From Escherichia coli (GTDB lineage Bacteria; Pseudomonadota; Gammaproteobacteria; Enterobacterales; Enterobacteriaceae), in assembly GCF_030384885.1 (NCBI RefSeq), contig NZ_CP128613.1: DNA of 64,000 nt; one strand, 5' to 3'. Positions within the stretch are counted from its first letter, which is position 1. Each line of letters begins with the position of its first letter. Under the pieces are notes generated by a model. The model was not told where the DNA came from and did not search any database. It worked only from the letters and a program-made list of their open reading frames with translations. Both the position numbers and the translations under genes were made by a program. Shown here piece after piece: positions 49,497 to 51,167 of this stretch.

Positions 49497-49724
49497 ATGC
49501 CAACTCAAGAAGCGAAAGCTCATCACGTCGGTGAATGGGCATCTCTGCGCAATACGTCGCCGGAAATAGCCGAGGCCATTTTCGAAGTCGCCGGGTACGA
49601 CGAAAAAATGGCGGAAAAGATTTGGGAAGAAGGTAGCGATGAAGTGTTAGTCAAAGCCTTTGCTAAGACCGATAAAGATTCGCTTTTTTGGGGCGAACAG
49701 ACCATCGAACGTAAAAACGTTTAA
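49497..49724 (+). CDS. yccJ: Small protein YccJ (75 aa)
   Basis: 75-aa ORF 20 nt downstream of wrbA. Confidence 0.85.
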
Positions 49725-49732
49725 TCCTGAAC

Positions 49733-49759
49733 CTCCCCCGTAGTGAACGGGGGAGTTTT
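49733..49759 (+). terminator. Rho-independent terminator after yccJ
   Basis: ctcccccg-tagtgaa-cgggggag followed by tttt. Confidence 0.75.
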
Positions 49760-50259
49760 CGATTATTCATTGACCAACGTCTCATGTCCTGTTATTACTG
49801 TGAGATATTCAATCACGTTATCAAATAAAAAAATCGATATCATTGCGGTAAGCTTGTTATTGATTATAAATATGGGTAATAAGCGATATCCAGCATGAAT
49901 TTGATTGTACAGGGTATTTCCTATATAGCCATTGGTTAAATCTTGAAGATAAGATACCTCCGGCTGAAAAATCCATCCCGGCAATGAAGGATGTGATATT
50001 TTCGTAATTCTCTTGCAGAATAAACAACCCTGGATACGCTCTGAATACAAGGAAATTTTCCAATAAATTATTTATTCATCAATACTCCCCGGCGAGGATC
50101 ATCAAAATATCTCATTATCTTTTAAAACTGCCCAGCCCGTTATAACGGACGTTATCTGGCGCACGCTGAAGTGGGCATGATACTCACTTTCATTAAAATG
50201 CTCGACATGATTTGCTAATCGCTTAGCTAGATAATTGACGTTCAGTCTGTGCCAAATTT

Positions 50260-50619
50260 TTAGCGAAAAATAGCAAATTTAAGCCGGGAATTTATCAAAG
50301 CATCCTCATTTACTTCACCATGAACAATAAAGTCACGCATAAACTGCAGGTGTTTAATTAATAAAATCCATTCACTTTCAGTAAGATAGTTTTTCCCACG
50401 CAGATTATAATACAGAGATTTGATTAATGGGATCTTCTGCTTATGGCGCTTTGACCGCGCTGAGCACAATATTTGTTCTATCAGGCCAAGCGTCCCTTTC
50501 TGACGCAACCAGCACCGGAGTTCAGACTGCGCGCTAATGCCGCGAGCCACCGACAAATGTATTTGGGTAAGCAATGCGTATAAACCTAATAAAAACGCGT
50601 CGTGATAATACCGCTTCAT
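50260..50619 (-). CDS. Hypothetical protein (119 aa) in an AT-rich insertion; C-terminal R-x4-H-G motif (HEPN-like?)
   Basis: ATG at 50619 preceded at 12 nt by the previous ORF's TAA and an SD-like GAGGTGGG; translation MKRYYHDAFLLGLYALL...HLQFMRDFIVHGEVNEDALINSRLKFAIFR. I recognise no family; the reading frame is open in a very AT-rich context. Confidence 0.5.
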   Translation of the reverse strand: MKRYYHDAFLLGLYALLTQIHLSVARGISAQSELRCWLRQKGTLGLIEQILCSARSKRHKQKIPLIKSLYYNLRGKNYLTESEWILLIKHLQFMRDFIVHGEVNEDALINSRLKFAIFR

Positions 50620-50631
50620 TACCCACCTCTG

Positions 50632-51000
50632 TTATCGTAATTTTTTAAACAAATAATCATATAAAATTTCGGCAATGAATTCTGCATGTTCACGTCGCAC
50701 AATGACATTCATAACGTAATATTGCGCAGCAATTTCATTGATAAAATGTTCAGGCAGTATGAATACGCGTGCATAAGCCGAGTATATTTCCAGTATTTCA
50801 TTTGAGATGTTTTCAAGATCAACGCAATAATTTGTCACATCATAAAAAAGATTAGCGTATTTTTTATTAATTATGCTAAGGCATATAAATGGGGCATTTA
50901 ATTTTTCACACAATTGCCAGTGCGTTCTTTCATTTTCTCCCTTCCATGTATACTTCATTTTGTCAGCCATCCTTTGATTTACGCGTCTGAAGTTTACCAC
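50632..51000 (-). CDS. Hypothetical protein (up to 122 aa; start may be GTG 51000 or the internal ATGs MADK / MKYTW) in an AT-rich insertion
   Basis: Open frame immediately upstream of and co-directional with the 119-aa ORF; candidate -10 TATAAT on the minus strand at 51036-51041. No family recognised. Confidence 0.45.
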   Translation of the reverse strand: MVNFRRVNQRMADKMKYTWKGENERTHWQLCEKLNAPFICLSIINKKYANLFYDVTNYCVDLENISNEILEIYSAYARVFILPEHFINEIAAQYYVMNVIVRREHAEFIAEILYDYLFKKLR

Positions 51001-51098
51001 TGTGTCTGGGGTAAACCATGCGTTCTATGGTAAAAATTATACGAGATGTGGCGCTGCGTAATATTCTGCTCCCTCAATATATTTCTGGTGAATATGTT

Positions 51099-51131
51099 CC
51101 AGGTTAATTGGGAAGATCTGCATGTGATCTT
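51099..51131. repeat. Perfect 13-bp inverted repeat aattgggaagatc-N7-gatcttcccaatt
   Basis: Seen directly; lies ~40 bp beyond the agp stop at the edge of the AT-rich insertion; candidate terminator or protein-binding palindrome. Confidence 0.6.
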
Positions 51132-51167
51132 CCCAATTTTATGACTACAAAATGTCAATAGCCGGGT

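Follow-up and report, generated by a model that had tools for sequence, protein, structure and literature searches.

A partly decayed array of candidate orphan Rhs-type immunity genes between yccJ and agp in Escherichia coli

A 64,000-nucleotide stretch of Escherichia coli DNA (RefSeq assembly GCF_030384885.1, contig NZ_CP128613.1; hereafter the window) carries, between the core genes yccJ and agp, an AT-rich block of 1,408 bp (positions 49760-51167) that holds an operon-like trio of small genes on the minus strand, here called ORF1, ORF2 and ORF3 (ORF, open reading frame). We propose that this block is a partly decayed, toxin-less array of three orphan immunity genes of the Rhs type (rhsI-like, of the kind associated with Rhs toxins and type VI secretion systems, T6SS), a reading to which we give a probability of about 0.75. 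The proposal draws on the anatomy of the block, its rarity, its synteny across species, past purifying selection on its genes and the toxins that adjoin their homologues. From these observations we infer the immunity function of the proteins, the binding and neutralization of toxins, the toxin target of each protein and their expression. An earlier note, made from the letters of the window alone, had seen in the block the signature of toxin-antitoxin, abortive-infection or orphan immunity modules; the last of these is the one that the relatives of the proteins, encoded behind toxin C-termini, speak for, and the other two found no support.

In the mechanism that we envisage, each family would consist of small cytoplasmic proteins whose relatives are encoded straight after the variable C-terminal domain of a polymorphic toxin, either Rhs or PT-HINT. 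The immunity protein would bind and neutralize this toxin, and a cell that carries the immunity gene alone would resist the matching toxin when a competitor injects it. In the window only ORF1 could still act, as a predicted orphan immunity protein for an unnamed family of Rhs C-terminal toxins. The array would be decaying, since ORF2 has lost its conserved C-terminus and ORF3 bears three lesions.

Relatives of the three proteins adjoin polymorphic toxins

None of the three proteins has a significant match in Pfam or NCBIfam, the named immunity families of these libraries (Imm1-Imm74, SUKH/SMI1, Barstar and others) included, and nothing above chance was obtained with PADLOC or PHROGs. Sequence and profile searches of the PDB returned no match for any of them, hence no solved structure, and Pfam gave no match for the ORF1-linked toxin or for the 41 members of the ORF3 family scanned singly. 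The three families are thus unclassified in profile libraries, in keeping with the earlier note, which could name no family for the proteins; our search for experimental reports on any of the three found none. A word-indexed protein search returned Escherichia sequences only, and the genes looked like ORFans until an exhaustive HMMER search, in which a concatenated profile of the three proteins was run against 1.84 billion representatives at E <= 1e-3, produced 107 matches. Each of these falls on a single segment of the profile, and with few exceptions they are stand-alone proteins of similar size. As every match covers one segment only, the three families are independent of one another, and Escherichia alone brings them together.

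Two relatives of ORF1 lie immediately behind an Rhs toxin. On plasmid pTMTA97303 of Phytobacter diazotrophicus, a homologue with 54% identity starts 2 nt past an Rhs fragment that ends in ...DPLGL followed by a 94-aa basic C-terminal domain. The second homologue (P0014, 41% identity), from a metagenomic contig, starts 5 nt past an Rhs C-terminus. The toxin domain linked to P0014 is 73% identical to that of Phytobacter, and the paired putative immunity proteins are 44% identical. The surrounding plasmid region (L017:3692-9751 in our set of loci) is a run of orphan toxin-immunity modules that includes AHH with Imm43, the Rhs C-terminal domain followed by the ORF1 homologue, a small ORF paired with a TNT-like fragment, and more remnants of Rhs cores.

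The relatives of ORF2 give a similar picture in other hosts. In three Citrobacter werkmanii-type loci, a homologue with 37% identity overlaps the stop of an Rhs gene by 4 nt. In two of these loci the Rhs gene encodes a PAAR-Rhs effector of 1,487 aa, with VgrG and DUF2169 ahead of it and orphan modules of the Barnase/Barstar type downstream. The C-terminal domain of the Citrobacter Rhs protein matches Tox-ART-HYD1 (PF15633, i-E 6.7e-4). Homologues of ORF2 also lie directly behind homologous toxin domains in Proteus mirabilis and in E. coli CREC-544, where the Rhs C-terminus and the ORF2 homologue again overlap by 4 nt; the CREC-544 module is common to 24 complete E. coli genomes in all. Across the three hosts the linked toxins are 51-61% identical, and their putative immunity proteins 34-36%. 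As side observations on the Proteus records, two P. mirabilis entries filed as plasmids in PLSDB (NZ_OL790811.1 and NZ_OL790812.1) are, at 4.08 Mb, evidently chromosomes, and the Rhs gene of P. mirabilis H63 is apparently frameshifted, with the toxin and immunity frames fused, which suggests sequence errors.

For ORF3, one relative (P0057) is encoded 11 nt past a 208-aa PT-HINT protein with a C-terminal toxin and adjoins a Tox-REase-7 gene; another (P0155) lies 9 nt past a toxin C-terminus that is 58% identical to the one linked to P0057. The ORF3-family proteins of the two pairs are 27% identical. When 27 concatenated members of this family of 41 small proteins were compared with plasmids by tblastn, no match was found.

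In all three families, therefore, homologues are encoded on the same strand as a toxin, overlapping its C-terminus or within about 15 nt downstream of it, and wherever one toxin family recurs in a diverged form, it is followed by a diverged form of one small-protein family. Co-variation of this sort marks cognate immunity genes. The toxin contexts were those of Rhs and PT-HINT proteins, with no CdiA/VENN context for any homologue. In the Rhs systems that have been tested, immunity comes from the small ORF that follows a toxin demarcated by PxxxxDPxGL, and its protection extends to the cognate toxin only (PMC3150448).

The predicted fold of ORF1 is compatible with this picture. The AlphaFold2 model of ORF1 (predicted local distance difference test, pLDDT, of 95) is a small alpha/beta protein with no specific neighbour in the PDB. 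Its fold relatives in the AlphaFold database, always of about 110 aa, are scattered over Proteobacteria, Firmicutes, Bacteroidota and Actinobacteria, with examples in Streptococcus, Bacteroides, Flavobacterium, Corynebacterium and Acinetobacter, and such a patchy spread across phyla is typical of polymorphic-toxin immunity proteins. ORF2 is modelled as a helical bundle (pLDDT 82) with generic matches only. The ORF1 family also has a second member in the genus, an E. albertii protein of 110 aa (A0A7Z7YJV5) that is only 52% identical to the ORF1 of the cassette and would be a paralogue encoded elsewhere.

The partner toxins are missing from the locus itself. With the Rhs core and the three toxin C-termini as queries, tblastn gave no match better than chance, either across the 64-kb window or in the alleles of the block. 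We also considered a toxin remnant in the leader, the 209 bp of non-coding DNA between the agp stop and ORF1 (50959-51167, minus strand), or between the genes, and rejected it since tblastn found none; the intergenic spacers, of 12 nt and 22 nt, leave no room for a toxin fragment. The HYD1-like Rhs module of E. coli is absent from all five genomes that carry the block, as judged by a DNA-level check of each whole genome. Since neither toxin nor remnant lies nearby, we infer that the genes of the cassette are orphan immunity genes.

Proximity to a toxin C-terminus would equally be expected if the proteins were toxin accessory proteins, that is, chaperones or adaptors that load or stabilize the adjacent toxin and confer no immunity, and co-occurrence does not itself show what effect a protein has on the toxin. 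We nevertheless hold this to be very improbable. An adaptor would be pointless in a genome without the toxin, and the adaptors known from Rhs/T6SS loci, DUF2169 among them, have their genes ahead of the effector gene. In the Citrobacter effector locus the order is VgrG, DUF2169, PAAR-Rhs and then the ORF2 homologue, which places the latter directly downstream of the toxin C-terminus, the position held by the immunity gene in tested Rhs systems (PMC3150448).

The same data bear on the two remaining suggestions of the earlier note. A type II toxin-antitoxin module, in which one of ORF1 and ORF2 is toxic and the other neutralizes it, would account for small, co-directional genes spaced by 12 nt in AT-rich accessory DNA. 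It would not account for families that never occur together outside Escherichia: each of the 107 matches covers a single segment, the contexts of homologues there never hold two of the three families, and every family has its own toxin-linked context. Moreover, ORF2 is truncated in two lineages in which ORF1 is unchanged and the reverse is seen in none, and Pfam and NCBIfam reveal no toxin or antitoxin domain. We therefore regard an addiction module as most unlikely. The odds seem just as long for an anti-phage defence or abortive-infection cassette. What speaks for it is general in kind, namely a rare, AT-rich segment at a variable locus with small genes of no known family, whereas no PADLOC model matches, PHROG matches are at chance level, none of 50,697 phage records gave a tblastn match, the block is flanked by core metabolic genes and not by a defence island, and the informative contexts of homologues are all interbacterial toxin loci.

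Some observations weigh against an array of immunity genes. The identity to the toxin-linked homologues is only 29-54% and immunity is normally cognate-specific, so that protection against those particular toxins is not assured. The Pfam match to HYD1 is marginal, and the evidence for ORF3 consists of two toxin-immunity pairs on short metagenomic contigs. Members of the families are also found in toxin-free, unrelated contexts (Superficieibacter, Kluyvera and glpK-adjacent contigs), and because several members have no toxin nearby, a toxin-independent role for the families is possible. Orphan members of the ORF2 family occur in Superficieibacter, in Kluyvera beside thiM/thiD, and in Proteus alimentorum at the end of a five-gene immunity-like array. 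The last of these (L035:3207-6468) comprises five co-directional small ORFs (223, 202, 164, 247 and 160 aa) downstream of an Rhs-core remnant; the ORF2 homologue is the final one and is followed by an integrase fragment, and the run is likely a poly-immunity array.

Anatomy and decay of the cassette

The block is bounded on the left by yccJ (49497-49724, plus strand, with its stop at 49724), which is convergent with the cassette, and on the right by agp (51168-52409, minus strand, stop codon at 51168-51170), which lies upstream of the cassette and points in the same direction. At 37.4%, its GC content is below the 52% of wrbA-yccJ and of agp. The end of yccJ is followed after 8 nt by a G+C-rich hairpin that has a T tail (49733-49759); this hairpin also stands immediately beyond the end of ORF3. 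In a K-12-like genome the gap between the convergent yccJ and agp is 37 bp, with the equivalent hairpin of the same type followed directly by the agp stop. The earlier note was accurate on this framework: the yccJ terminator hairpin and the agp stop lie where it had placed them, the strong AT-richness of some 1.4 kb was borne out by our GC comparison, and its statement that a few tens of base pairs separate the two convergent genes in K-12 was right.

Alignment of the carriers, with ORF calling in all alleles, resolves the content of the block into three co-directional genes downstream of agp. ORF1 (50632-50958, minus strand) encodes 108 aa; it is the sole intact gene of the trio in the window, and it is intact in every allele examined. 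Because its homologues begin MKY or MKF, this 108-aa form, which is also the one called by the Prokaryotic Genome Annotation Pipeline (PGAP), is likely the real ORF1, rather than the 122-aa form that begins with GTG at 51000. The 12-nt spacer that follows (50620-50631) holds a Shine-Dalgarno-like GAGGTGGG upstream of the ORF2 ATG and does not differ among the four E. coli copies that were aligned, those of the window, 2013C-4282, N3 and N96.

ORF2 occupies 50102-50619 on the minus strand, where an intact frame would end at 50102. Owing to a 1-bp deletion between 50280 and 50281, the reading frame is shifted, and what is left is a 119-aa ORF (50260-50619). At full length the product measures 172 aa in N96, MFDS1022581 and E. 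fergusonii, and the divergent E. coli allele described below codes for 177 aa. In strain N3 a different indel has the same truncating outcome. In the C-terminal half of the family, invariance is confined to three residues (R125, E140 and H141), which lie in or near a conserved C-terminal motif, LADxVEHFNQS, and all within the part lost from the window copy. With all three of them gone, the window ORF2 is a pseudogene.

From the end of the full-length ORF2 frame to the start of ORF3 there are 22 nt. ORF3 (49763-50079, minus strand) is a pseudogene in the window, as judged by alignment with the N3 and divergent E. coli alleles, the only intact ones among those examined; intact alleles encode 100-105 aa. 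Three lesions separate the window copy from these: 2 bp are missing after codon 3 (about 50068), a CAA codon has become the nonsense codon TAA (49857-49859), and the T-run at 49826-49832 holds an additional T. The earlier note had described two minus-strand ORFs, of up to 122 aa at 50632-51000 and of 119 aa at 50260-50619, separated by 12 nt and with GAGGTGGG before the second ATG. The frames, the spacing and the Shine-Dalgarno-like sequence are all present, but the cassette has three genes, of which two are pseudogenes in the window; the first ORF is probably shorter than was thought, and the second is the product of a frameshift.

Pairwise Nei-Gojobori estimates on divergent pairs gave dN/dS ratios (nonsynonymous to synonymous substitution rates) of about 0.09-0.30 for all three ORFs, and 0.09-0.26 for ORF1. 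By these ratios, all three were real protein-coding genes under purifying selection.

The leader contains a TATAAT on the minus strand (51036-51041), which had been put forward as a candidate sigma-70 -10 element. The hexamer is indeed there, but it has no acceptable -35 and was missed by a consensus promoter scan, in which promoter-like sites were no more frequent than in shuffled sequence. A strong hairpin at 51108-51136, starting 31 nt past the agp stop, has a 13-bp stem (TTGGGAAGATC N7 GATCTTCCCAA); it is conserved in four aligned E. coli copies and is without a U-tract, and the 73-nt fold that holds it has a z-score of -4.5 against shuffles. This hairpin could be a partial terminator, an RNA-stabilizing element or a protein-binding palindrome. 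Given a leader with no convincing promoter and a hairpin that lacks a U-tract, read-through from agp is a plausible source of transcription, and the cassette would be expressed in this way or from a weak promoter of its own.

Distribution and history in Escherichia

The block is carried by 5 of 5,426 complete E. coli genomes and lies between yccJ and agp in all five; megablast and a more sensitive blastn with the divergent allele as query returned the same five genomes. Strain 2013C-4282 is identical to the window across a 2.1-kb query that spans the block and its flanks. The neighbours are core genes, with wrbA-yccJ on one side and agp-yccE-cbpA on the other. No integrase, transposase or repeat boundary accompanies the block in its E. 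coli carriers, and a TTATT(C/T)CA microhomology is all that its two edges have in common. We considered a simple recent insertion with target-site repeats and rejected it, as this microhomology is the only sequence shared by the edges and fits a deletion equally well.

The same trio occupies the same site in E. fergusonii, in E. albertii and in a divergent E. coli allele, where all three genes are intact. In the divergent E. coli lineage, wrbA and yccJ are 99.3-99.6% identical to those of the window, whereas the cassette is only 86-89% identical. In the comparison with E. albertii, the ORFs of the cassette (79-92% identity) and the flanking genes (88-93%) have diverged to a like extent, which fits a long residence in the genus. 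Alleles also move by recombination through the conserved flanks, as is seen from the divergent E. coli allele and from an ORF2 that is near-identical between E. coli and E. fergusonii. Taken together, the data fit an old resident segment that has been lost from most E. coli, or one moved by homologous recombination. To the earlier note the block had looked strain-specific and horizontally acquired; its AT-richness and rarity agree with this, while its presence at the same site in three Escherichia species and its flank-like divergence from E. albertii do not.

Two scans of GTDB representative genomes recovered no Escherichia locus; in one of them, an exact 23-mer from the start of ORF1 had no match in the species representatives. 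As no Escherichia locus is found among these representatives, the block appears to be variable in every species that carries it. The possibility, raised in the earlier note, that K-12 and essentially all E. coli share the block is thus not borne out: K-12 lacks it, as do all but five of the complete genomes. Its other reservation, that the ORFs might be disrupted across carriers, applies to ORF2 and ORF3, which are broken in several alleles, but not to ORF1.

Lesions in the trio have arisen independently in N3, N96, E. fergusonii and E. albertii. In E. albertii (L011:6928-8299 and L012:5643-7014), an element of the IS3 family (IS, insertion sequence), with a helix-turn-helix protein and an rve transposase, lies between ORF2 and yccJ and destroys the ORF3 region; it is the only IS element seen at the locus and is a secondary insertion. 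In E. fergusonii-type loci (L007:4212-5453 and L006), agp is called as two pieces of 69 aa and 332 aa, or is not called, and may be a pseudogene.

The genes to the right of the cassette are themselves diverse. The agp of the window is 94.1% identical to that of a K-12-like genome, and yccE, an AT-rich gene encoding 417 aa, is about 85% identical over 63% of its length, in contrast to wrbA, yccJ and ymdF, which are about 99% identical. By this comparison, the agp-yccE stretch (51168-53957 in the window) is a local hyper-diverse tract in E. coli that extends past the cassette.

Decay on this scale raises the question of whether anything in the block still works. It could be a functionless relic: descended from immunity genes, with no present function, ORF1 being merely not yet hit and the DNA silent, for instance through H-NS acting on AT-rich DNA. 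In the window two genes of the trio are already pseudogenes, lesions have accumulated independently in the four lineages named above, more than 99.9% of complete E. coli genomes no longer have the block, the scans of GTDB representatives recovered no Escherichia carrier, and no convincing promoter was found. On the other side, ORF1 is intact in all alleles examined, with a dN/dS of 0.09-0.26; over ORF1 and its leader the window shows no difference from MFDS1022581, and its identity to N96 there is 99.5-100%; and the whole trio is intact in the divergent E. coli allele. We consider a relic possible but doubtful. As it agrees with an array of orphan immunity genes on the origin of the block and disputes its present function only, its probability overlaps with that of the array and is not to be added to it.

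Significance and comparison with known immunity systems

Orphan immunity genes of polymorphic toxins are already well described as a kind of element, and we propose no new kind of system. What is new is the set of unclassified families, a proposed toxin partner for each, two of them unnamed, and a gene-by-gene decay at a fixed core-genome site across the genus. Three families of "hypothetical proteins" that stand outside all profile libraries would thereby receive a probable role, each paired with a family of toxins: one a HYD1-like ADP-ribosyltransferase, the other two unnamed C-terminal toxin domains. On the more speculative reading given at the end of this section, the three protein families and two of their partner toxins would provide new, experimentally tractable toxin-immunity pairs. 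The locus would also illustrate neatly how immunity genes can outlast their toxins at a fixed core site, decaying one gene at a time and differently from lineage to lineage, and it would bear on the gain and loss of "cheater" immunity against T6SS/Rhs attack in Enterobacteriaceae.

The cassette resembles type II toxin-antitoxin operons in its small, adjacent, co-directional genes and short spacer; it differs from them in having no conserved pairing outside Escherichia and no known toxin or antitoxin domains, and in that each family pairs with a secreted toxin. The cassette also resembles the orphan Rhs-CT/rhsI modules of enterobacteria (CT, C-terminal toxin region), whose genes are likewise small and AT-rich (PMC3150448; Koskiniemi et al., 2014, PMC3967940). 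Relatives of ORF1 and ORF2 come straight after a DPxGL-demarcated Rhs toxin, both in full-length T6SS PAAR-Rhs loci and in orphan modules. Unlike these modules, the window retains no rhs-CT fragment, so that immunity genes alone remain; the cassette lies between two core genes and not beside an rhs or T6SS locus; and all three of its families lack a Pfam or NCBIfam model.

Orphan cdiA-CT/cdiI modules of contact-dependent inhibition systems are relevant in that orphan immunity proteins can be functional (PMC3150448). Both they and the cassette are stockpiles of immunity genes found downstream of polymorphic toxins, although the contexts of the homologues of the cassette genes are Rhs and PT-HINT, without CdiA/VENN.

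The acquired interbacterial defence (AID) clusters of gut Bacteroidales are reportedly located on mobile elements, some with a recombinase, whereas the cassette has no integrase or mobility gene, always lies at one chromosomal site, and comprises three genes only, most of them decayed. AID arrays are consecutive immunity genes without toxins, and in Bacteroidales they shield their hosts from the T6SS toxins of foreign strains and other species (bioRxiv 10.1101/471110; PMC12247911). The cassette, with its three consecutive toxin-less genes, each from a toxin-linked family, matches the arrays in this, and the same role can be proposed for it. Speculatively, the trio may then be the enterobacterial counterpart of the acquired-defence arrays of Bacteroidales, a chromosomally fixed, toxin-less stockpile kept in parts of Escherichia since the genus diversified, in which ORF1 would protect 2013C-4282 against uncharacterized basic Rhs C-terminal toxins of about 90 aa delivered by competitors.

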